Shown: positions 662 through 46,986 of the stretch, in pieces
Numbering within the stretch: position 1 is the first letter of the stretch
Layout: every line of letters begins with the position of its first letter
Sequence record: MG589383
Direction: 5' to 3' (one strand)
DNA from: Shigella phage phi25-307
DNA: 64,000 bases
Notes under the pieces: model-generated
Told to the model about the DNA's origin: nothing
Databases searched by the model: none
The model's input: only the letters and a program-made list of their open reading frames with translations
Made by a program: the position numbers and the translations under genes

Positions 662-2749
662 CTATCCTTGGACAAATTTAAACGGAACTGATTCTAAATC
701 CATTAAAGATGCTAACAATTTCAATCCTTTAGGAGCACTAGTTTTTTCTACAAATGAGGAGAACGATATCGGCTCATCTGATTCGATTTCACCCGTCATA
801 GCAACCACCTCACCTGTTTCCATGAGAACATCACCGTCGTAAATGACAGCTTCGTCCAACTGGTCCGAGGACATGACTTCAGCTTGAATAAATTTAAGGT
901 TGGATTCTAAACCTGCACCAGTGTCAGATGACGCATCTGTAATTTTATTTATCTGCAAGAGAATGCCTCTAGGCAAAATAATTTCTTGCTCATTAGGGTG
1001 ATTACTCAACTGTCCAGGATAAATCACGTTAACTTTATGGGCGCCATCAATAGCCCATCCAACGTTAACACGGATTTGGTCTGGTGCATGCATAGCTGTT
1101 CTTACTTGACTAGGAGAAATAGTAACACCTTCGTCATTATTGTCAATGTTAAGCTCTTTGCGAACTTCTTCAGGAGCAAGTCCAAGGGCAACGTTCTCTT
1201 TAAACCCACCGAAAATAATAGGAGCTAGTGAAGTGGAAACATAGTTTCTGAAGTAGAATACCTTATTTTTAACCATTGCTTCGTAAATAGGCATTCTGAT
1301 AGACTGAGCTCTATATAACGTTAGTCCTTCAGGTAAACGGTCTCCATTTAAAAACGCTGAATCAAGACCATCAATAGCGCGTTTAACTTCATCTTCATCT
1401 GCAACATCGTAAAAATCTGGTTTATAACGACCTAACAGCATATTATTGATATCGGTATACGCAGAAGAGGCATATTCACGAATAGCTCGTTTTTCAGCAA
1501 CAGAGTATTGATTAGGGACCCGATTCATTGTTATATTAAAGGTGCCTCTAGCCGATTCTCGTGCATAAGTATACATCACATTAGACAAGAACGCTGATTT
1601 ACGTTGTTTCCAAGTTTTTTCAGATACTTCAGCTAAAACGTCGTCAGCCAGTTGGAAATTATCACGTCTAAAATCTTCAAACCATTCGTCTTTAATAGAG
1701 TCTGCAATTTCATTTGCAGCTTCAACAAAAGCAGTTAATGCTTTAACAGATGTTGTTTTTTCAGTTTTAATTTTCTTAGCAAACTTTTCTAAAGTTGGCT
1801 TAATAACACTACCATAAGAAACTTCATCAGCAAATCTAAAGGATTCATCAATACGATTATAAATCTTATTTTCGATATCAGCAACTAAAGTGCCTTTTGC
1901 TGTGGACGATGCTTGGGCTAGTACGATTTCATATGCTTCAGGAAGTAATTCGGCTGTAGCTGGGCCACTAACTTCTTTAGCAGAATTTTCGTATTTCTGG
2001 AATAACTCACCTTCTTGTCGGTCAGCTTCTAAAGATTGACTTGCTGCAATAGCACGACGAGAAATTTTAGTACGAGCAATAACAGGCTTATCTTTACGTT
2101 TTTCTTCTACAGCAGCAATAGAACCAGCGATAGCCGTTTCTTTGGTGACCTTTTCGCCAGTCTTTTTACTCACATAAACTTCGCCAACATCAGAATCTAC
2201 TTTCGTGTACAACTCTGTGTTAATGTTAGGGATGCCTTTAATATCTTCAATGTTGGCATTTTTGCGAACCATCATCACATAGGTGTGTTTACCTGTGAAT
2301 TGATACATTGCCGACAATACTTTAAAACGACCACCGGTTTTAGTAGAAACTAAACGAGCAAGAAGAGTTTGAAGCTGCTGTCCGCGTCCTTTCAATTTCT
2401 TGGTAGGGAATCGGAATAGAACTGCATCCATACGAAGAGCTTTAACCTGTTCATATACTGTATTGAAAATGGTGTTGATTGCATCAATAGGAGCAGGACC
2501 AAGGCCATTTTTCAATTCAGCGAGATTGCCCTTTTCAGATAGACTCATAATAACAACATGAGCGTATTTGTCGCCAAGTTTAACTTGTTTTACAGCATCA
2601 CCTTCGGAAAGGTAAGAGAATAAGCGAACTACGATGTTTGTATCGATATCACCAATTTTCCAGACTTGTGGAACTTTAGCTTTAGGGTTCAAATTGACGA
2701 CAGGAAGACTGCCTTCAGATTCAAACACTTCATTTAATTGTTCAGACAT
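662..2749 (-). CDS. alt: Alt-like ADP-ribosyltransferase (head-packaged), 695 aa
   Basis: C-terminal ART motifs in order: R (LYRAQSIR), STS (YVSTSLAP), E-x-E (NEQEIILPRG); size close to T4 Alt (about 682 aa); position between gene 54 and ligase as in T4. Confidence 0.8.
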   Translation of the reverse strand: MSEQLNEVFESEGSLPVVNLNPKAKVPQVWKIGDIDTNIVVRLFSYLSEGDAVKQVKLGDKYAHVVIMSLSEKGNLAELKNGLGPAPIDAINTIFNTVYEQVKALRMDAVLFRFPTKKLKGRGQQLQTLLARLVSTKTGGRFKVLSAMYQFTGKHTYVMMVRKNANIEDIKGIPNINTELYTKVDSDVGEVYVSKKTGEKVTKETAIAGSIAAVEEKRKDKPVIARTKISRRAIAASQSLEADRQEGELFQKYENSAKEVSGPATAELLPEAYEIVLAQASSTAKGTLVADIENKIYNRIDESFRFADEVSYGSVIKPTLEKFAKKIKTEKTTSVKALTAFVEAANEIADSIKDEWFEDFRRDNFQLADDVLAEVSEKTWKQRKSAFLSNVMYTYARESARGTFNITMNRVPNQYSVAEKRAIREYASSAYTDINNMLLGRYKPDFYDVADEDEVKRAIDGLDSAFLNGDRLPEGLTLYRAQSIRMPIYEAMVKNKVFYFRNYVSTSLAPIIFGGFKENVALGLAPEEVRKELNIDNNDEGVTISPSQVRTAMHAPDQIRVNVGWAIDGAHKVNVIYPGQLSNHPNEQEIILPRGILLQINKITDASSDTGAGLESNLKFIQAEVMSSDQLDEAVIYDGDVLMETGEVVAMTGEIESDEPISFSSFVEKTSAPKGLKLLASLMDLESVPFKFVQG

Positions 2750-2784
2750 AGTGTTTTCCTTTTAGTAATAATTTATATTTATGC

Positions 2785-2805
2785 CAAAAAGAGCCCGAAG
2801 GCTCT
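2785..2805 (-). terminator. Intrinsic terminator (UUCG-loop hairpin plus U-run)
   Basis: AGAGCC-CGAA-GGCTCT hairpin at 2790-2805, followed on the minus strand by TTTTT; abuts the stop of ORF 2805..2993. Confidence 0.6.
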
Positions 2806-2993
2806 TAATCCACAATCGGGAGCAAAGTACGATAAACTTCAAAATTAGGGCCTTTTTCGTACCCATTAACGTTATCTACGAAAACCCGATACGAATTTTC
2901 ATTAGGAAAATCTAATATAATCTGAGAGCAAGAGGTGGAAACATCTCCACCATCCTTCTTAGCTACAATAACTGTTTCTAAATAAGCTTTCAT
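2805..2993 (-). CDS. Hypothetical protein, 62 aa
   Basis: Start trimmed to the ATG overlapping the ligase stop (TAATG at 2991-2995); ends at the terminator hairpin. Confidence 0.45.
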   Translation of the reverse strand: MKAYLETVIVAKKDGGDVSTSCSQIILDFPNENSYRVFVDNVNGYEKGPNFEVYRTLLPIVD

Positions 2994-4486
2994 TATAAAC
3001 CTGTCTGGGACCACGGTCCAAATACGTCTTCAAACGAATCCGCTTCTGTTTTATCAAAACGGAACCCTTTAATAATTGGAAGGAAAATACCTACAGTACC
3101 TTCACGGCCTTTAGAATGAACCCAACCATTACATTCACAATCAGCGATACGTCCAATTAATTTACCTTCACGAGCTTCGGTCATTAATCGTTCACGGTCT
3201 AAATCATGACGCTCGTCTAAAGGAATAAGAACCTTTACACCGTCAACTGTTTTATGAGTTGTATCTTTAAACCCTGAACCACAATCGGTTGTAATACGAC
3301 GACAACGTGATACGAGTTCGACACCACCTAATTTGTTAGGGTCTTTAGAGTGTTCATAGTATCCTACAACTTCTAAAGCGATATCAATAACTTCTTTAAA
3401 TTTAATTAGGTTCTTAGAGCGTTTGTTTTCCCAATATGAATCACGGTTTTTAAGGATAATACCTTCAAGACCTTGGTCAACATATTTTTTATAAACTACT
3501 TTAGCTTCGTCAAGATTACGAACTAACTGATTTTCAATTGGTTCAATTCGCTTAAAGCCTTCAGCCATATTTTCAAGAGCAGCAAAACGAACATCGTATT
3601 TCTGACCTTTAATTTTGCCGTCAGAATAGACTTCATCTAAAGGAACATAGTCCCAGGCTTGAAGAACCATACCTTCCGCTTCTTTAGGAGAAATAGTCCC
3701 TTGAAGAGATTTATTTGCTAAACCATTTGAAGTGCTACGGTCTGCAACTTGTACTTCTTCGGATTCTTCATTATCACCAAATAAGAACGACAGGTCATTT
3801 CCTGAGCTCACAGCCTTTTTAATATCGAATGAATGATAAACTAATTCACCGTCGATTAAAACCCCATTAGGGTGTCTTTCACGAGCTTCTTTAGTCATTT
3901 CCATTAGTTCATCCGCTAATAGAGTAAGACCATGGTATTCGTTACCAGCACGAGAAAAGAATTGAACACCATCATCGCGAACTTCAGCGAAACAACGAGC
4001 ACCATCTGCTTTTAATTGGGCAAATGCGGGCCATTTAATATTTTTAGTAATCAATTTCTCATCATATGCAGATGCTAACATCTGTGGTTGCAATTGAATA
4101 AGTCCAGGCCACACCTTATTCGCGATAGACACTGAAGCACCTACTTCAAGGTCGCGCATCATTACACGACGAAGGACTTCTACATCATCAGGTTTACCAT
4201 CAGCGATATAACCCATGAGCTCTTTAATTGCAGCATTACCGGTGAGTTTACGAGTGGCTAATGTGAACTCAATAAAATCCAACATGTCATCTAATTCAAG
4301 AAGACCATATGCTTGAGACCTTTCACCCGGTCCTGGCCATTTCTTAATATAATACTGGATACCACGTGCATATGTTAAACGATACACACGTTCAAGTAAT
4401 TTGTTGTCCTTATTTTTCTTAAGGATTTCTTGTTTTGTTTTAGTAGAACCGATCGCAGCTATTTGGTTTAAAATATCTAAAATCAT
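2993..4486 (-). CDS. 30: ATP-dependent DNA ligase, 497 aa
   Basis: Adenylation motif KADGAR; N-terminal region closely resembles T4 gp30 as remembered; size and position between alt and rIII match T4. Confidence 0.92.
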   Translation of the reverse strand: MILDILNQIAAIGSTKTKQEILKKNKDNKLLERVYRLTYARGIQYYIKKWPGPGERSQAYGLLELDDMLDFIEFTLATRKLTGNAAIKELMGYIADGKPDDVEVLRRVMMRDLEVGASVSIANKVWPGLIQLQPQMLASAYDEKLITKNIKWPAFAQLKADGARCFAEVRDDGVQFFSRAGNEYHGLTLLADELMEMTKEARERHPNGVLIDGELVYHSFDIKKAVSSGNDLSFLFGDNEESEEVQVADRSTSNGLANKSLQGTISPKEAEGMVLQAWDYVPLDEVYSDGKIKGQKYDVRFAALENMAEGFKRIEPIENQLVRNLDEAKVVYKKYVDQGLEGIILKNRDSYWENKRSKNLIKFKEVIDIALEVVGYYEHSKDPNKLGGVELVSRCRRITTDCGSGFKDTTHKTVDGVKVLIPLDERHDLDRERLMTEAREGKLIGRIADCECNGWVHSKGREGTVGIFLPIIKGFRFDKTEADSFEDVFGPWSQTGL

Positions 4487-40028: not shown

Positions 40029-41354
40029 TCAAAGTGCCTCCAAGTCTTTAGTGTACTCTGTCACAACATCAGTAGACTTCCAATACTCATTTTCTTCTTT
40101 CTTAGCTTTAGCTTCTTCTGCCAGTTTACGTGCTTCGTCGGAAGTGATATGGAAGATGTTAAGGCCTACCAGTTTATCGACATGTTCTTTATACATTTCG
40201 ATTTGTGCTAGCTCTTCAGTCAAAGCTTTACGAGTCTTGCCCTGAATCACAATTTCGCCACTGATAACTTTTTTGATGAAGTGTGCCTTAGCAAAAGCCA
40301 GTTTAAATGCTTTTTCAGATTCAAGGATTTTGTTGTCAATACGTTTCTGAACGTAAGTCTTACGGACTTCAACAAAATCTTTGATTAAGTCCACTACGTT
40401 ATCATAGACGGCTAATTTACCCTTTTCATTAATCACTGTGATGTTTTGTGAACGACGTTCGATGAGACTAAAATCTTTCATGATTTTTTCATGACGTAGC
40501 TCTTCATCATCAGGAAGCGAGTACTCTTTACGGAACTTCACCTTAAACCCAAAGCCGTGTTCACCACAATCATCTTCCCATGAGATTAGACCTTTGTCTT
40601 CCAATGGGTCAAGAACCTTACTCACATACGTTTCACGGTCGAATTTATATGGGATTTCAGTTATCTGCATTTGAGTGCGAGATGTGAACTTATATGTTCC
40701 GTGAATCTCATAACGCCCATCAACTTCGTGTACTTCACCACGGAATTCCGGGAATTCAACTTTTGGCTTAGTGACATTTTTACCTTGAAGAGCTTGTAAT
40801 ACGGCCTTTTTTACCGATTTAAAACTATGAGGCAGAATATTTGTTGCGTAACCGGTTGCAATACCAGAGACACCATTCAAAAGAACTGTCGGAATAATAG
40901 GAAGATAGAATTTTGGTGGAATGTGTTCTTTATCTTCATGGGCTGGAGCATATTCAGTATCTTTATATACGTTATAGAAATTTTTACTTACACGAGCAAA
41001 AATATAACGAGATGCTGCAGCTTTTTGGACTGTTCGAGAACCAAAGTTGCCTTGGCCATCTAACAGTGGATAGTTGTTGTTCCATGTGTTAGCCATCAAT
41101 GCACCTGCATCTTGTGCAGAAGATTCACCATGGTGATAACCTAAATCTGCAACACCGCCTGCAATTGACGCAAGTTTATGAAATTTTTCTTTATTACCAC
41201 GAGCCAAATCTAACGCACGATGAACCACAAAACGTTGAACCGGCTTAAATCCATCAATCATGTTTGGGATTGCACGGTTTTCAACGGTGTACATCGCGTA
41301 TGCTAAGGCTTCGTTATCAATAATACTTTTTAGATTACGAGAATTCAATTGCAT
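40029..41354 (-). CDS. 52: DNA topoisomerase II medium subunit gp52, 441 aa
   Basis: Size close to T4 gp52 (442 aa); GyrA-like N-terminal region with near-identity to remembered T4 gp52 (IDNEALAYAMYTVENRAIPNMIDGFKPVQRF). Confidence 0.95.
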   Translation of the reverse strand: MQLNSRNLKSIIDNEALAYAMYTVENRAIPNMIDGFKPVQRFVVHRALDLARGNKEKFHKLASIAGGVADLGYHHGESSAQDAGALMANTWNNNYPLLDGQGNFGSRTVQKAAASRYIFARVSKNFYNVYKDTEYAPAHEDKEHIPPKFYLPIIPTVLLNGVSGIATGYATNILPHSFKSVKKAVLQALQGKNVTKPKVEFPEFRGEVHEVDGRYEIHGTYKFTSRTQMQITEIPYKFDRETYVSKVLDPLEDKGLISWEDDCGEHGFGFKVKFRKEYSLPDDEELRHEKIMKDFSLIERRSQNITVINEKGKLAVYDNVVDLIKDFVEVRKTYVQKRIDNKILESEKAFKLAFAKAHFIKKVISGEIVIQGKTRKALTEELAQIEMYKEHVDKLVGLNIFHITSDEARKLAEEAKAKKEENEYWKSTDVVTEYTKDLEAL

Positions 41355-41696: not shown

Positions 41697-42143
41697 TTAG
41701 TAACTCTGCAGAATGAATTTGAAGTTATCAGCCAGAAGACGGTTCATTTCAGTGAGTGTTTGATATTCTGATGTATGGTTGCGAGTGAATGCCAGAGCCA
41801 ATTGACCTTTACCGTAACCAGTAGTCAGGGGTTTCATGTTCTTAGCTGCAACAAAGATTACATCATATTCAATATTGTTAGTGCCCATGGTACGGGCTAG
41901 TTGCGAACGGCCTTGACGAATGTGAGAAAGAATTGCATCTAACCCTTGTTTAGAACGTTGACGTCCTACAAAGAATCGTGCTGCTACTTGACGCCAATCA
42001 GATGAACCTTTAACAAAGAAGTAAAAACCTTCACGAGAACGAAACTCTTTAGAAACTTCAGAACCGTATTCGCCATTACGAACTACTGCAACAACTTCAC
42101 CGCCAACTGCCAGAAGGTCTTTACGAGTTAAATATTTGGACAT
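41697..42143 (-). CDS. ndd: Nucleoid disruption protein Ndd, 148 aa
   Basis: Close match to remembered T4 Ndd ([63 protein letters not shown]). Confidence 0.9.
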
Positions 42144-42220: not shown

Positions 42221-42421
42221 TTATTCGGCTATATCAGAACGTTCAAAAAGCTCTTCAACAGTTAAACATTCGGTGTCGTCCTCAATAAAGAATCGAGTCC
42301 AACACGTTGGGGCGATACAGTTATGAGTTTGTCCGGCGATAGAAGCTACACGAATAAGCTGCTGACCATTATTCAGAACAAATTTTTCACCAATTTCAAC
42401 ATCTTTAAAAAGCTTAGCCAT
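42221..42421 (-). CDS. Hypothetical protein, 66 aa
   Basis: ORF downstream of the cassette at 42443-42479. Confidence 0.5.
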   Translation of the reverse strand: MAKLFKDVEIGEKFVLNNGQQLIRVASIAGQTHNCIAPTCWTRFFIEDDTECLTVEELFERSDIAE

Positions 42422-42442
42422 TTTGTGTTCCTCATGTTTCAG

Positions 42443-42479
42443 TAGGACTACTATACCATAATCCTACCTTGATGTAAAC
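42443..42479 (-). promoter_or_regulatory. PeSL-like early promoter cassette (family B)
   Basis: Minus strand GTTTACATCAAGGTAGGATTATGGTATAGTAGTCCTACTG. Confidence 0.55.
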
Positions 42480-42481
42480 AA

Positions 42482-42592
42482 TTAAATTACATTAAAATAT
42501 GTTAAAGCCAACCATGTTCCAGTGAACGAACATACGATGTAAAAACCCGTATCACAAATTGTTCTTAGTACAATAAGAAGCGCATTTTTCAT
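42482..42592 (-). CDS. Hydrophobic micro-protein, 36 aa (below ORF-track cut-off)
   Basis: Hand translation MKNALLIVLRTICDTGFYIVCSFTGTWLALTYFNVI; ATG overlaps the stop of the preceding micro-ORF (ATGA). Confidence 0.3.
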   Translation of the reverse strand: MKNALLIVLRTICDTGFYIVCSFTGTWLALTYFNVI

Positions 42593-42675
42593 AAGTACCT
42601 CAATGCAATTGAAAATATTATACAAATCATAGGGATACTAAGCAACCATATTCCGATCCACATTTTAGAGCTCAT
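42589..42675 (-). CDS. Hydrophobic micro-protein, 28 aa (below ORF-track cut-off)
   Basis: Hand translation MSSKMWIGIWLLSIPMICIIFSIALRYL; ATG overlaps the stop of ORF 42672..42935 (ATGA). Confidence 0.3.
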   Translation of the reverse strand: MSSKMWIGIWLLSIPMICIIFSIALRYL

Positions 42676-42935
42676 ATCTCAACTTCCGCGAGTTCCATAT
42701 ATCCTTTGTTGATAACCTCTTTAAGGTCTTTAGAAAGAATAACACTAAAATGGTCGTTCATATGTCCATTAACTAAACGAGTTATTTCTGCTTCAGATGA
42801 CATATAAGGCACGTCTGAGTCCCAATGAGATAGACTCAAATGGGTATAAATCATCCCTTCGTCATCTGCGGTGTTGTACATTGAAACAAATTCGCCTGTT
42901 ACTTTATGTTTTGCGTAGAAAAATTTAAATTTCAT
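42672..42935 (-). CDS. Hypothetical protein, 87 aa
   Basis: ORF downstream of the cassette at 42964-43001. Confidence 0.55.
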   Translation of the reverse strand: MKFKFFYAKHKVTGEFVSMYNTADDEGMIYTHLSLSHWDSDVPYMSSEAEITRLVNGHMNDHFSVILSKDLKEVINKGYMELAEVEI

Positions 42936-42963
42936 GATGTTATCCTCTTTTAGATAGGACTAC

Positions 42964-43001
42964 TATATCATAGTCCTACTTAGTTGTAAACACTTTTATG
43001 A
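42964..43001 (-). promoter_or_regulatory. PeSL-like early promoter cassette (family B) with perfect 8-bp inverted repeat
   Basis: Minus strand GTTTACAACTAAGTAGGACTATGATATAGTAGTCCTATC. Confidence 0.55.
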
Positions 43002-43003
43002 AA

Positions 43004-43480
43004 TTAAAGATGAAGATACCACCCGTTGTAGTTGCTCTTGCGGACGATTTTCTTTAGGTCTTCATGGTCTCCCACGAACTTTATAGAATAAGAGAAGACG
43101 TCAGGTGAGGTTTCTTTGACATCTAATATAATAATGCAATCTGCGACTCGATGGTTCAAGAAGGGCCCTATATTGATTCCATTACCACCCGGATAATCAC
43201 CACTGTATCCTGTGGTAACCGAAATCCATTTAGAATCTATCTGGTGTGTCTTGACTTCTACACGAATTCCACAATACTTGGGATGGGCTAACACGTCCCA
43301 TGCATACGTGTACGGGTCTTCTACGTCTTCAATACCTTTATTAACATATCCGTCTAGCCAATTTGCTACTACATACTCTGCAAAGACCGCAACCTTACAA
43401 CGTCGAACTACGTCTTCTTTTATTTGACCTGGATCTTGTTTCAACGAGTACCGAGCAGTGTCAGCAATCTTCACCTTCAT
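43004..43480 (-). CDS. Putative PD-(D/E)xK-like nuclease, 158 aa (possibly DenB / endonuclease IV by position; start uncertain)
   Basis: D...EVK and LDVKE motifs; position between rIIB and ndd; the track ORF extends to 43624 (206 aa) and an internal Met would give 185 aa. Identity is not established. Confidence 0.35.
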   Translation of the reverse strand: MKVKIADTARYSLKQDPGQIKEDVVRRCKVAVFAEYVVANWLDGYVNKGIEDVEDPYTYAWDVLAHPKYCGIRVEVKTHQIDSKWISVTTGYSGDYPGGNGINIGPFLNHRVADCIIILDVKETSPDVFSYSIKFVGDHEDLKKIVRKSNYNGWYLHL

Positions 43481-43496
43481 TTCACTAGTCAAAAAC

Positions 43497-43784
43497 TCAT
43501 TCGACAGGATAAATGTCGGAAGATTCTTCAGTCTCAACAGTCCCAAGTTCGTCTTTACCATAGATACCTCTGATGTGTAGTTCGCCAAAATAAATGCGGT
43601 CACCTTCTTCAAGATATTCTGCATCTACAGGCGGAATTTCAATAACAACTTCGTCACATTCTAACCAGCCGTAGTGTGCATCGCCAGGATGTTTTACCAA
43701 TTTAGCACAATAAACTGATTTACACTTATGATGACCACGAAGATTAGCAATTTTGGATTCTGATACGTCAAATGGATGAATCAT
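43497..43784 (-). CDS. Hypothetical Cys/His-containing protein, 95 aa
   Basis: Start trimmed to ATG 43784, which follows the rIIB terminator and AGGGG; contains HHKCKSVYC. Confidence 0.5.
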   Translation of the reverse strand: MIHPFDVSESKIANLRGHHKCKSVYCAKLVKHPGDAHYGWLECDEVVIEIPPVDAEYLEEGDRIYFGELHIRGIYGKDELGTVETEESSDIYPVE

Positions 43785-43796
43785 AATTACCCCTAA

Positions 43797-43822
43797 AGAA
43801 AAAAAAGGGGACCGAAGTCCCC
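43797..43822 (-). terminator. Intrinsic terminator after rIIB
   Basis: GGGGAC-UUCG-GUCCCC hairpin followed by UUUUUUUU on the minus strand. Confidence 0.7.
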
Positions 43823-43827
43823 AATTA

Positions 43828-44763
43828 TTATTCTGCAAATAATTCAGTAACGTCTGAAATTACTTCATAACGACAAGTACGCATCTTAGCATCACCATAG
43901 TCAACTGGGATAGATACAACATCACGTGGATGAACTTTAACCTTAACAACTTTATCTGAGCTAGAACCAAAGTAACGAATATATGATTTAGCACAAACAT
44001 GTAGACCACGGGAACAAGTTTGTGTATCATCATCGTTAACACGAGTACGAGGCATTGAAACAACTTTACCAGGCGAGTTATCAAATGTGCCACTATAGCA
44101 ATCTAAATAGTCTTTACGAACTACTTTCCACGCATAGAAATGCCCATCTTCAGTGATTTCAATATCGTTTGCAACCAAGAAGTCGAATAAACGTTGTACA
44201 GCTTTTTCGCTTGGGTTTTCTAACAGGTTTTCAAGGAACGGCAGATAGAATTTAAAGTCTTCGCCTTTTTCCATGGAATCAATAATACGATTAACCAGTC
44301 CTGAACGAATTTCTATACCTTGATAAAATAAACTACCACCTTCAATAGTAACATTACCGTCAACAAACTTAGTAATAGCTTTCTTGATGTTAATAAGTTC
44401 GACAGCTTTACTAAGGTTTCCTGCGACCAAATTGGCTTTAATTTCTTCAAAATTTGCATGACTTGTTGGGGTCGCATTGTATGCTACGCGTCCTTCAATG
44501 ATTGAAATAAATTTAGATGACGCGTTCCATACGATTTCTGGACGATGACCTGTAATAATAGGTTCATTATTTTCTGGGACCTGTTCTTCGTCTTCAAATT
44601 CAGCTGCTTTCTCTTCAGCTTTAAAATTCTTAACAATCTTACGAAGAGTATCTGTTGAAATGCCGAAGTAATCGGCAATTTCTTTACGAGTCCATTTGCC
44701 TGATTCAACCAGGCCGTAAGCTTCTAACTGTTCTTCTTGGGACAAGCATTTAATATTGTACAT
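43828..44763 (-). CDS. rIIB: rIIB protein, 311 aa
   Basis: Size close to T4 rIIB (312 aa); extensive identity to remembered sequence (FYLPFLENLLENPS.KAV.RLFDFLVANDIEITEDG.FYAWKVVR, KVKVHPRDVVSIP). Confidence 0.95.
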   Translation of the reverse strand: MYNIKCLSQEEQLEAYGLVESGKWTRKEIADYFGISTDTLRKIVKNFKAEEKAAEFEDEEQVPENNEPIITGHRPEIVWNASSKFISIIEGRVAYNATPTSHANFEEIKANLVAGNLSKAVELINIKKAITKFVDGNVTIEGGSLFYQGIEIRSGLVNRIIDSMEKGEDFKFYLPFLENLLENPSEKAVQRLFDFLVANDIEITEDGHFYAWKVVRKDYLDCYSGTFDNSPGKVVSMPRTRVNDDDTQTCSRGLHVCAKSYIRYFGSSSDKVVKVKVHPRDVVSIPVDYGDAKMRTCRYEVISDVTELFAE

Positions 44764-44772
44764 AATGTTTCC

Positions 44773-46986
44773 TTATTTGGCCGCTTCCACGGCCTTCATG
44801 AATTTAACGATTTGAGCGACCTGTTCTTTGGAAAGAGTACCACGTCGTCCCATGTATTCTGACACAATATGATAATTGGTTTCGAATTCAATAACCATTT
44901 TATCATCATTATCGTAAGCATTATCTTTAAGCTTATCGAAAATTTTAGCACACAATTCTAACTTCTTATTCAGGTCTGTATTAGTAGCACCTGCGAATCG
45001 ATTCCATCCCCAACGATTATTTACTGTTGAGAGTTTTGCAAAGTCTTTACTGATTTCTTTGTTCTTAGAGCTAAAATACTTACTAAGGAAGTTAAGCTCT
45101 TCGTTACGAGTAATATGATTCAAATAAGGCTGTGCTCTACGACTTGGTGATACATACTCATCATAATCCACTTTGTCAATTAGCGTAATATAGTCATTAA
45201 TTGATTTTTCGAACAAGCATTCTACTTCACCAAGTTTACGAACTTTCTTAGCAATCTGTGGACGGACTACAGTGAACTCTTTAATACCTGACAAATCAGC
45301 AATACGAGTCAAGAAACTAGAATCATAGTTCAACCAACCTTTATCTGCGTCAAGACATTCGGCGTTAGAACGATTACGAATTACAACATAACCTTGAATC
45401 TCATCGGCTTTACCGGCCGGAATAAAGAGATCTTCTGATACCCAAACATCGTTTTCATTCTTAAAGAACCGATGAGCACTTGGGGATTTAGGACGAGGCT
45501 GCGATGAACGTTCTTTAACTTCAATCCACGGTTTAACTAATGCAAGAATTTCAGAGGTCTTATAAAATTTAAGGCTATCACCAGCGAAAATAACCTTTAA
45601 TCGTTCTAGAAGTTTCATTGCAACTTCATCTTCCGGATTAACGAATAATACGCTACTACCCCATCCGGAAGGAACCTTATCAACGAGTGTTGATGCATCG
45701 GTGGAAGTCAAAGCATCGTTCAGAGCACGCATCATTGGTACGCGGCCTTTCACATCGTCAATAACAATATCAATATGCTTACGACTAATACCTAGCAGGC
45801 TATTAATTGAAATAGTTGAAGACGAGCTTCCGCTTTCACGAATACGACGAAGTCGTGGATCTGAAACGATATCGTATACAACACCAAGGTTGCACCATTC
45901 AGGTCCCATTTTAAACCGTTTGTACAACTCAGAATAAGTTAGCTGTTCTTTAGAATATTTCAGTGATTCAATATTAGAACCGGCTTTTTCCATGTATTTA
46001 CGAGCAGAGTAACCAAGAGAATCGATTTCACGGAATACATGACGTGGATATTCACAATCAATCCATTTCTTAGAATCTTCAGCAAATAATTTTGCATCGA
46101 TTTCTGCAACACGTTTATGGATATTTGCTACTGTACGTTTATCAAATGACAATGCTTCACGAGACGGGGCTACATCTAGTTCACCCATAGGGAATTTAAT
46201 ATAAGCTGTAGTGCATCGCGTCATCATCCATGTTTGTTCTTTAATAACACTTCCGATTGGATATACAATACCACCATAAACAGCCATGATATTACCACGT
46301 TCACCCCATGGAGCTTCCTTGGCTAAATAAACATCATCGAATTCCGGGAAGTATTTGATATCTTTAACACCACGAACTTCTGCAATATCGCCGAGAGGAC
46401 GCATAACATATGCAATTTCAGATGCGAACTTTTCAAAATCTTCTGGGTTAACCGGTACAACTACTTCTACACCCGTACGGTCATCAGGGCCCATCTTATC
46501 TACAAAGGTTGGCTTAATCTGTGGACCGCTGTCATCTTGATAAATTACATAACCACGAACTTCACCGTTGTGATAAGACGTAAGGTTAAACGTATCGGTA
46601 TACGCTAGTGGAGCTTTAGAGCCGAGTCCGAATCCACCAATGAAATCGTTACTCGATGTTTTAGTTGAAGCAAAATATGAATTATAGATTCCTGGCTCTT
46701 CGTCATTACCTCGAATGGTGAAATCACTCATACCAGGACCAAAGTCTCGAACTACAAAACGTGGGTCTAAACGACCTGGAGCCTGAACAATAAACTTATC
46801 AGTGCAACCATTAAGAATTTGACCATCGATACAGTTTGTGATTAATTCGCGTACACAAGCCAATTCTTTGTTTGTATAAAGGTCATTAGACAAAATCTTA
46901 TAAACTTTGCTATTGCCTTGAATAGTAAATGCTGTGCTCTTATCGCCTGAACCAATAATCGTTTCTTTAGCCGTTTCAATAATCAT
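44773..46986 (-). CDS. rIIA: rIIA protein, 737 aa
   Basis: Size close to T4 rIIA (about 725 aa); N-terminal GHKL-ATPase-like region matching remembered T4 rIIA (ELITN.ID...FGPGMSDF, YNSYF.S.K..SNDFIGGFGLGSK). Confidence 0.95.
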   Translation of the reverse strand: MIIETAKETIIGSGDKSTAFTIQGNSKVYKILSNDLYTNKELACVRELITNCIDGQILNGCTDKFIVQAPGRLDPRFVVRDFGPGMSDFTIRGNDEEPGIYNSYFASTKTSSNDFIGGFGLGSKAPLAYTDTFNLTSYHNGEVRGYVIYQDDSGPQIKPTFVDKMGPDDRTGVEVVVPVNPEDFEKFASEIAYVMRPLGDIAEVRGVKDIKYFPEFDDVYLAKEAPWGERGNIMAVYGGIVYPIGSVIKEQTWMMTRCTTAYIKFPMGELDVAPSREALSFDKRTVANIHKRVAEIDAKLFAEDSKKWIDCEYPRHVFREIDSLGYSARKYMEKAGSNIESLKYSKEQLTYSELYKRFKMGPEWCNLGVVYDIVSDPRLRRIRESGSSSSTISINSLLGISRKHIDIVIDDVKGRVPMMRALNDALTSTDASTLVDKVPSGWGSSVLFVNPEDEVAMKLLERLKVIFAGDSLKFYKTSEILALVKPWIEVKERSSQPRPKSPSAHRFFKNENDVWVSEDLFIPAGKADEIQGYVVIRNRSNAECLDADKGWLNYDSSFLTRIADLSGIKEFTVVRPQIAKKVRKLGEVECLFEKSINDYITLIDKVDYDEYVSPSRRAQPYLNHITRNEELNFLSKYFSSKNKEISKDFAKLSTVNNRWGWNRFAGATNTDLNKKLELCAKIFDKLKDNAYDNDDKMVIEFETNYHIVSEYMGRRGTLSKEQVAQIVKFMKAVEAAK

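Follow-up and report, generated by a model that had tools for sequence, protein, structure and literature searches.

A T4-type denB gene and the DUF7418 gene overlapping its start downstream of rIIB in Shigella phage phi25-307

Introduction

The closest described relative of the nuclease analyzed here is DenB (endonuclease IV) of phage T4, a protein of 185 residues and 21.1 kDa that requires Mg2+ and cleaves single-stranded DNA (ssDNA) 5' of dC (PMC1635256). DNA containing glucosylated hydroxymethylcytosine (glucosyl-hmC) is left uncut by the T4 enzyme (PMC1635256). Two of its residues have been linked to function by mutation, with W88R abolishing activity and S176N altering the polarity of cleavage and removing toxicity (PMC2175332).

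Renewed attention to DenB comes from its role as the trigger, on the phage side, of retron Eco2/Ec67. DenB of phage T2 triggers Eco2, and the T2 mutants that escape this retron map to DenB residues G71, G180, and W181, and DenB in purified form introduces nicks upstream of dC into the msDNA of the retron (PMC12916289). Both T4 and T2 DenB are active alone when purified (PMC1635256, PMC12916289). Bas46 and Bas47 are the only reported exceptions to Eco2 triggering among the Straboviridae that carry denB (PMC12916289), and both are Mosigviruses (bioRxiv 2024.04.04.588119). As for the fold of the enzyme, a conserved PD_D/ExK motif in DenB was stated in a 2025 paper on the basis of AlphaFold (PMC12405507). 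A 2012 census of the PD-(D/E)XK superfamily, which assigns DUF3883 to it, contains no mention of DenB (PMC3424549).

Here, we report on the genes downstream of rIIB in Shigella phage phi25-307, within a window that is the whole stretch of DNA analyzed (64,000 nucleotides of sequence record MG589383). Our main result corrects a doubt at the level of annotation: the nuclease gene in this interval is denB, it encodes 185 residues from position 43561, and its PD-(D/E)xK-type motif is intact. A modestly new result, comparative in nature, is that the DUF7418 gene stays beside denB across T-even genera, almost always overlapping it.

Results

The locus belongs to a Mosigvirus and keeps the T4 gene order

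Between positions 42600 and 44000, the DNA shares 99% identity with Escherichia phage vB_EcoM_SQ17, a Mosigvirus, and 97-98% with ~150 further phages, including PhAPEC2 (classified as a Mosigvirus) and Bas46. This similarity identifies phi25-307 as a Mosigvirus, belonging to the RB69-like T-even relatives of T4. Every gene in the stretch from rIIA to gene 52 lies on the minus strand, and the gene order (rIIA, rIIB, a small ORF, denB, then further on ndd and gp52) matches that of T4 and T6. The following features frame the locus.

44773-46986, minus strand: rIIA (ORF list)
43828-44763, minus strand: rIIB (Pfam and PHROG searches)
43797-43822, minus strand: GC-rich hairpin with a UUCG loop (stem-loop GGGGACTTCGGTCCCC, 43822-43807), then a T-run (terminator scan and sequence)
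43497-43784, minus strand: 95-residue gene, RB69ORF272c, DUF7418 (PF24193), phrog_2237 (Pfam, PHROG, and PhAPEC2 annotation)
43004-43561, minus strand: denB, T4-type endonuclease IV, 185 residues, 21.1 kDa (phrog_1360, alignment to T4 and T6, tblastn, and PF26887 homologues)
41697-42143, minus strand: ndd (Pfam and PHROG searches)
40029-41354, minus strand: gene 52 (gp52 identified near denB)

Three small ORFs are listed between the nuclease ORF and ndd. Small ORFs otherwise vary in this region, with denB.1 and ndd.1-ndd.6 differing among T4, T6, RB33, and the window.

The UUCG hairpin sits between the rIIB stop codon and the 95-residue gene. From its sequence, the hairpin with its T-run looks like a terminator or an RNA-stability element; a terminator is annotated at the equivalent site in the PhAPEC2 record, and T6 and T4 have a comparable GGGCTTCGGCCC hairpin ahead of the DUF7418 start. 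Neither a sigma-70-like nor a MotA-box promoter was found between the 3' part of rIIB and the 95-residue ORF. Since the pair of genes has no promoter in this interval and has the hairpin just upstream, transcripts of DUF7418 and denB probably arise by read-through of the hairpin from rIIA-rIIB. An Rfam scan of positions 42400-44400 returned a single chance match to TarB, far below threshold.

The nuclease gene is an ortholog of T4 denB

At its maximal extent, the nuclease ORF spans 43004-43624 on the minus strand (206 residues) and carries the motifs WD(89)VL...RVE(102)VK(104)TH and LDVKE. The 206-residue ORF matches phrog_1360, "DenB-like DNA endonuclease IV," with an E-value of 8.6e-88 in an alignment that starts from residue 22. 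When aligned with T4 DenB (NP_049887), the 185-residue protein is 72% identical over 185/185 residues without a single gap, and the identity to T6 DenB is likewise 72%. A tblastn search with the nuclease retrieved 1090 phage records, routinely labelled denB or endonuclease IV, with an E-value of 1e-88 to denB of T6 and RB-series phages. Database homologues of the protein are labelled PF26887 (Phage_T4_End_IV), and the equivalent 185-residue CDS in the PhAPEC2 record is annotated as "similar to DenB ... T4." By these sequence comparisons, the gene at 43004-43561 is an ortholog of T4 denB, an assignment that goes beyond occupancy of the slot. The initial annotation had proposed a candidate nuclease in the position that denB holds in T4. 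The nuclease and the slot both stand, but the occupant is more than a candidate, and the lack of DenB homology that would have undone the proposal is contradicted outright by the full-length, gapless alignment.

An uncharacterised PD-(D/E)xK nuclease might instead have displaced denB non-orthologously, together with a zinc-binding Cys/His partner. Such a replacement would fit the D...EVK motif in the nuclease, the several Cys and His residues of the 95-residue protein, and the fact that the nuclease ORF found no match in the Pfam and NCBIfam libraries searched locally. However, it is refuted by the DenB homology just described, and the Cys/His ligands of the 95-residue protein vary across DUF7418 (see below), so that we give it practically no credence. 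The empty Pfam result has a simple cause, namely that PF26887, which we saw only as a precomputed label, is newer than the Pfam copy searched.

The orthology with T4 DenB thus includes the length of the protein and its position downstream of rIIB. The two proteins differ in 28% of their residues, and the window denB overlaps an intact DUF7418 gene whereas T4 denB does not. The phages also differ in that Mosigviruses, the group of the window phage, are reported to have arabinosyl-hmC instead of glucosyl-hmC (bioRxiv 2024.04.04.588119). Both denB and DUF7418 are already catalogued in RB69-like phages, and we hold the identities of the two genes, together with the 185-residue start of denB, with high confidence.

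In the alignment to T4, the window protein retains all of the residues known from mutants (W88, S176, G71, G180, and W181). Judging from its T4 and T2 homologues, the window DenB would be a divalent-cation-dependent endonuclease, predicted to cleave ssDNA at the phosphodiester bond 5' of dC, with a preference for TCA. It would help to fragment cytosine-containing host DNA and would block replication of dC-DNA, while the modified hydroxymethylcytosine DNA of the phage itself would be spared.

Translation of denB starts at the ATG at 43561

The start codon of denB had been left uncertain between forms of 158 and 185 residues. This doubt was genuine, because GenBank records conflict, with 185 residues in PhAPEC2 and 158 in Bas46/ChristianSchoenbein. 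The 185- and 158-residue forms correspond to in-frame ATGs at 43561 and 43480, respectively. The first of these is preceded by a clear translation signal.

43567-43571, minus strand: ribosome-binding site AGAGG of denB, 5 nt before the ATG (sequence)

No comparable ribosome-binding site precedes the ATGs at 43624 and 43480. M22 of the 206-residue ORF, which is the first residue of the 185-residue form, is precisely where the alignments with the phrog_1360 profile and with the T4 and T6 proteins start, and for distant DenB homologues, among them proteins of Acinetobacter phages, the alignment begins at residue 1-2. The first 27 residues of the 185-residue protein are kept in comparison with T4, T6, and distant homologues, L11 and F17 being invariant in 16 homologues. 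In an AlphaFold2 (AF2) model of DenB, residues 11-30 are predicted with a pLDDT of 91-95, which indicates that these N-terminal residues belong to the fold of the protein.

These findings bear directly on the shorter form. A start at 43480 is used in the Bas46 GenBank annotation, one clustered database protein has 158 residues (P0016), and the resulting gene would avoid the 65-nt overlap with the 95-residue gene. Yet this start would have no good ribosome-binding site before it and would discard 27 conserved residues, the invariant L11 and F17 and a confidently modelled part of the fold among them, and the T4 enzyme that was studied biochemically is the 185-residue form (PMC1635256). A 158-residue DenB is therefore very improbable, the question resolves to translation from the ATG at 43561-43559 (185 residues), and the 158-residue start in the Bas46/ChristianSchoenbein record is considered a mis-annotation. 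Knowing the exact DenB protein made by Mosigviruses has some practical value, since these phages evade retron Eco2.

DenB carries a conserved PD-(D/E)xK-type motif

As for the catalytic site, conservation points to four codons.

43250-43378, minus strand: putative PD-(D/E)xK active-site codons of DenB (conservation), E62 at 43378-43376, D89 at 43297-43295, E102 at 43258-43256, and K104 at 43252-43250

Across 16 DenB homologues, the most distant of them at 45% identity, residues E62, D89, E102, and K104, as well as D141, never vary, and the E62/D89/E102-x-K104 motif is also kept in T4 DenB. The D...ExK nuclease signature that had been noticed in this gene is thus borne out, E102-V-K104 and D89 being part of the invariant set. 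The second motif put forward at the time, LDVKE, is present in the sequence. It is not conserved, since T4 has FNTKE at this place, and it was rejected as a catalytic motif.

The AF2 model of DenB (pLDDT 75, with two low-confidence loops) places E62 in a helix (residues 48-68), D89 in a strand (residues 89-91), and E102 and K104 in another strand (residues 100-107). This predicted order, helix-E, strand-D, strand-ExK, is as expected for the PD-(D/E)xK signature. Weak support at the family level comes from PF13020 (NOV_C/DUF3883), to which five of the 16 homologues show sub-threshold matches, always over residues 62-117 and with a best E-value of 0.015; the window DenB itself has no Pfam match. 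When the AF2 model was compared with the PDB using Foldseek, nothing scored below an E-value of 1, the top entry being the PD-(D/E)xK enzyme HincII (E-value 1.1, probability 0.08). Searches of PDB sequences with DenB, with a DenB profile, and with the 95-residue protein gave chance matches only (DHFR, the FRB domain of mTOR, and pyruvate kinase). In view of the lack of a significant PDB match, the case for a PD-(D/E)xK fold is made by the motif, the sub-threshold Pfam matches, and the published AlphaFold-based statement.

DenB resembles the superfamily in its predicted helix-strand-strand-strand order and in the metal dependence of the T4 enzyme. It differs in that neither its sequence nor its model significantly matched a solved member, and in residues 110-126, following the ExK strand, which are modelled at low confidence. 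Judging from the conserved motif, catalysis is most likely carried out by a PD-(D/E)xK-type site composed of E62, D89, E102, and K104.

The gene between rIIB and denB encodes a DUF7418 protein

The gene following rIIB had been described as encoding 95 residues with the motif HHKCKSVYC, and we confirmed it on the minus strand, with an ATG at 43784-43782 and a TGA at 43499-43497. It has a translation signal of its own.

43790-43794, minus strand: ribosome-binding site AGGGG of the 95-residue gene, 5 nt ahead of the ATG (sequence)

The protein matches Pfam DUF7418 over virtually its entire length (residues 1-94, profile positions 1-99 of 101) with an E-value of 1.2e-37 and 128.8 bits for a cut-off of 27, and it matches phrog_2237 with an E-value of 1e-35. 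In the PhAPEC2 record, the gene is annotated as similar to RB69ORF272c. By tblastn, the protein has relatives in 699 phage records covering many genera, and it is 97% identical to its counterparts in other Mosigviruses. From 34 homologues, we obtained an alignment of 35 sequences. Outside the overlap with denB, pN is 0.14-0.30 versus a pS of 0.52-0.85.

The AF2 model of the protein (pLDDT 76) consists of an all-β core (residues 1-78) and a disordered acidic tail (residues 79-95), and the overall pI is 4.8. A Foldseek search of the PDB with this model found nothing similar, and a search of BFVD returned DUF7418 members only, with TM scores of 0.6-0.74. Of 1.8 billion representative proteins, just 11 match the family profile, and one of these, a 5745-residue repeat protein (P0057), appears to be an artefact of its repeats. 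Matches of DUF7418 members to other Pfam families are weak and inconsistent. Within its family, the window protein has a full-length match and the same position directly 5' of denB, and nothing sets it apart.

We found no literature on DUF7418 or RB69ORF272c. This, along with the lack of structural relatives and of a known function, is what could be expected if the ORF ahead of denB were open merely by chance, but a chance frame would account neither for the DUF7418 match and the relatives in 699 records, nor for the excess of pS over pN, the dedicated ribosome-binding site, and the agreement between the AF2 model and the BFVD models of the family. The odds of a chance frame are negligible, and the 95-residue ORF is a genuine gene that evolves under purifying selection.

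The gene is also distinct from the one that occupies the same rIIB-denB interval in T4. T4 DenB.1 (NP_049888, 64 residues) was considered and rejected as a homolog because it has no significant identity to the 95-residue protein and is helical rather than β. Both RB33 and T6 carry denB.1 plus a DUF7418 gene.

The 95-residue protein had further been proposed to be a Cys/His-rich partner of the nuclease. Cys and His residues are indeed present, but their pattern is partly clade-specific. In the 35-sequence alignment, H19 and C43 are the only invariant Cys/His residues. C22 of the HHKCK motif is found in one clade and replaced by Ala in nearly all relatives, while C26, although nearly invariant, is Ala in distant members, in which H32 and H37 are replaced as well. 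A zinc-binding Cys/His protein would call for four family-wide ligands, and this candidate was rejected. A clade-specific metal site is conceivable. The role of partner is unproven, T4 having lost the gene and its DenB nonetheless being active alone.

DUF7418 accompanies denB across T-even genera

With denB starting at 43561, the two genes overlap out of frame.

43497-43561, minus strand: out-of-frame overlap of 65 nt between DUF7418 and denB (coordinates from the 185-residue start)

The final 21 codons of DUF7418, along with its stop codon, cover the same DNA as codons 1-22 of denB, a gene read in the +1 frame. This arrangement is widespread. Among the first-pass loci, which represent at least six genera and cover Mosigvirus, Tequatrovirus, Dhakavirus, Jiaodavirus, Tegunavirus, and other contigs, 27/27 have DUF7418 immediately 5' of denB. 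The overlap spans 17-80 nt, mostly 65-68, and denB is always in the +1 frame. This neighbourhood is shared by further contigs, the sole exception being Serratia phage 4S, in which another ORF lies between the two genes. At most loci (at least 20, in several genera), the ribosome-binding site and ATG of denB are located inside the DUF7418 codons for a conserved HIRGIYG motif. A DIYP motif in the DUF7418 tail coincides with the codons for LPTF in DenB, which suggests that part of the apparent conservation of this tail is probably imposed by denB.

T6 has an intact DUF7418 ORF of 109 residues that is unannotated in its RefSeq record. T4 has lost 213 + 3 nt in frame, between short repeats, which leaves a 37-residue ORF that overlaps denB. 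Since T4 has only this remnant and its DenB nevertheless works both in vivo and in vitro, DUF7418 is not required for DenB activity.

The overlap suggests how the two genes could be linked. Ribosomes translating the last 21 codons of DUF7418 would cross the ribosome-binding site and the start codon of denB, and expression of the toxic nuclease might be tied to DUF7418 translation, whether coupled or damped, with both proteins being made together. Translational coupling of denB to DUF7418 is possible, although we regard it as doubtful.

We lean slightly toward another reading, in which DUF7418 is an independent early protein, for example one involved in host takeover or anti-defence, and the overlap reflects only genome compaction inherited in Tevenvirinae. 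The deletion in T4, where denB still works, is consistent with independence, as are the ORF that separates the genes in phage 4S and the Acinetobacter T4-like phages, in which DenB is present and DUF7418 was undetected by tblastn. Across loci, DUF7418 and DenB do not diverge in step with each other (Spearman rho of -0.24). At one locus (L013), identity is 65% for DUF7418 versus 39% for DenB, while at T6-type loci it is 33-35% versus 72%. Furthermore, when 105 nt surrounding the denB start were folded at each of 10 loci, no conserved RNA hairpin that would hide the denB ribosome-binding site or ATG was found (z between -1.7 and +1.9), and hence no RNA structure points to regulated coupling. What speaks against independence is that, phage 4S apart, DUF7418 sits immediately 5' of denB at all loci examined although other small ORFs vary, that all first-pass loci place the denB ribosome-binding site and ATG within the DUF7418 coding sequence, and that DUF7418 was never found away from denB in the loci examined. 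Adjacency alone is weak evidence of a link between the two proteins, because synteny is generally conserved in T4-like phages.

DUF7418 as a long-shot candidate in the evasion of retron Eco2

At the denB locus, Bas46 is 98% identical to the window. For the unrestricted Bas46 and Bas47, either non-activating DenB variants or inhibitors have been suggested in the literature, and the known functional residues of DenB are all intact in the window protein. One could imagine that DUF7418 is a co-translated modulator of DenB that restrains or redirects its cutting of ssDNA, in which case the Mosigvirus type could explain why Bas46 and Bas47 do not trigger Eco2. The Mosigvirus-type protein (95 residues) is only ~34% identical to the T6 type. 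We judge this scenario to be very improbable, and DUF7418 is at best a long-shot candidate for the cause of Eco2 evasion. It is nevertheless a cheap and well-defined target for knockout or co-expression work. Tequatroviruses with the 109-residue type of DUF7418 appear to be sensitive to Eco2, and AugustSocin carries this distant 109-residue type.

Discordant histories of the overlapping genes DUF7418 and denB

The two genes of the pair do not tell the same evolutionary story. When compared with the window, the loci L013, L017 and L019 share 63-65% identity in DUF7418 and only 36-39% in DenB, while Tequatroviruses (L024 and L002, the latter being T6) show the reverse, with 33-35% identity in DUF7418 and 72% in DenB. 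This conflict suggests recombination at or near the DUF7418-denB junction.

DUF7418 at three phage loci
T6 (L002, NC_054907), 1213-1542: intact DUF7418 ORF, 109 aa
T4 (L003, NC_000866), 4094-4207 (record 167593-167706), minus strand: remnant DUF7418 ORF, 37 aa (MIYMNIGDSDIKESLNAENESWVTETISDSDIYPIEQ)
Serratia phage 4S (L030, MW082584), 2501-3903: DUF7418 gene (86 aa), next a further ORF of 94 aa, then a longer DenB (233 aa)

The T6 ORF, which overlaps denB by 68 nt, is unannotated and sits in what the RefSeq record presents as a 297-nt "intergenic" gap. Relative to T6, the T4 remnant has a 213-nt in-frame deletion, apparently flanked by short AAAGRAA repeats, and a 3-nt deletion. This remnant, which is missing from the T4 reference annotation, still overlaps the denB start. 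Among the loci seen, a direct DUF7418-denB overlap is absent only in Serratia phage 4S, the rIIB of which is 421 aa long.

A giant 5745-aa protein with YD/RHS-like repeats from the representative library (P0057) matched the DUF7418 profile with an E value of 5.5e-20. However, its score comes from a 30-residue stretch present in seven copies, and the match looks more like an artefact of these repeats than like homology.

Hairpin and promoter-like sites around the pair

Elements in the window
43797-43822, minus strand: C(UUCG)G-type hairpin and T-run, directly 3' of rIIB
42962-42990, minus strand: promoter-like site (TTTACA, 17 nt, TG-TATAGT) preceding RB69ORF270c (42672-42935)
42955-42978: inverted repeat overlapping the preceding site
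42450-42478, minus strand: promoter-like site (TTTACA, 17 nt, TG-TATAGT) preceding the region upstream of ndd.1

Only about 12 nt separate the UUCG hairpin in the window from the ribosome-binding site belonging to the gene that follows, and in T4 and T6 a hairpin of this kind likewise precedes the start of DUF7418. The search for promoters found none between the window's hairpin and the DUF7418-denB pair, which is therefore probably transcribed through it. The two promoter-like sites are near-identical to each other.

DenB, retron Eco2 and start annotation

Although T2 DenB triggers retron Eco2, the Mosigviruses Bas46 and Bas47 carry denB and yet evade this system (PMC12916289). The DenB encoded in the window, at a locus (43004-43784) related to theirs, keeps every residue known to matter, and the cause of Eco2 evasion therefore probably lies elsewhere. 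The annotated denB start varies between records. In Bas46 (ChristianSchoenbein, a BASEL phage; L031, MZ501056), a downstream start gives 158 aa (905-1381), in contrast to the 185 aa used in other Mosigvirus records, while several database clusters use a 177-aa start (MRLK...).
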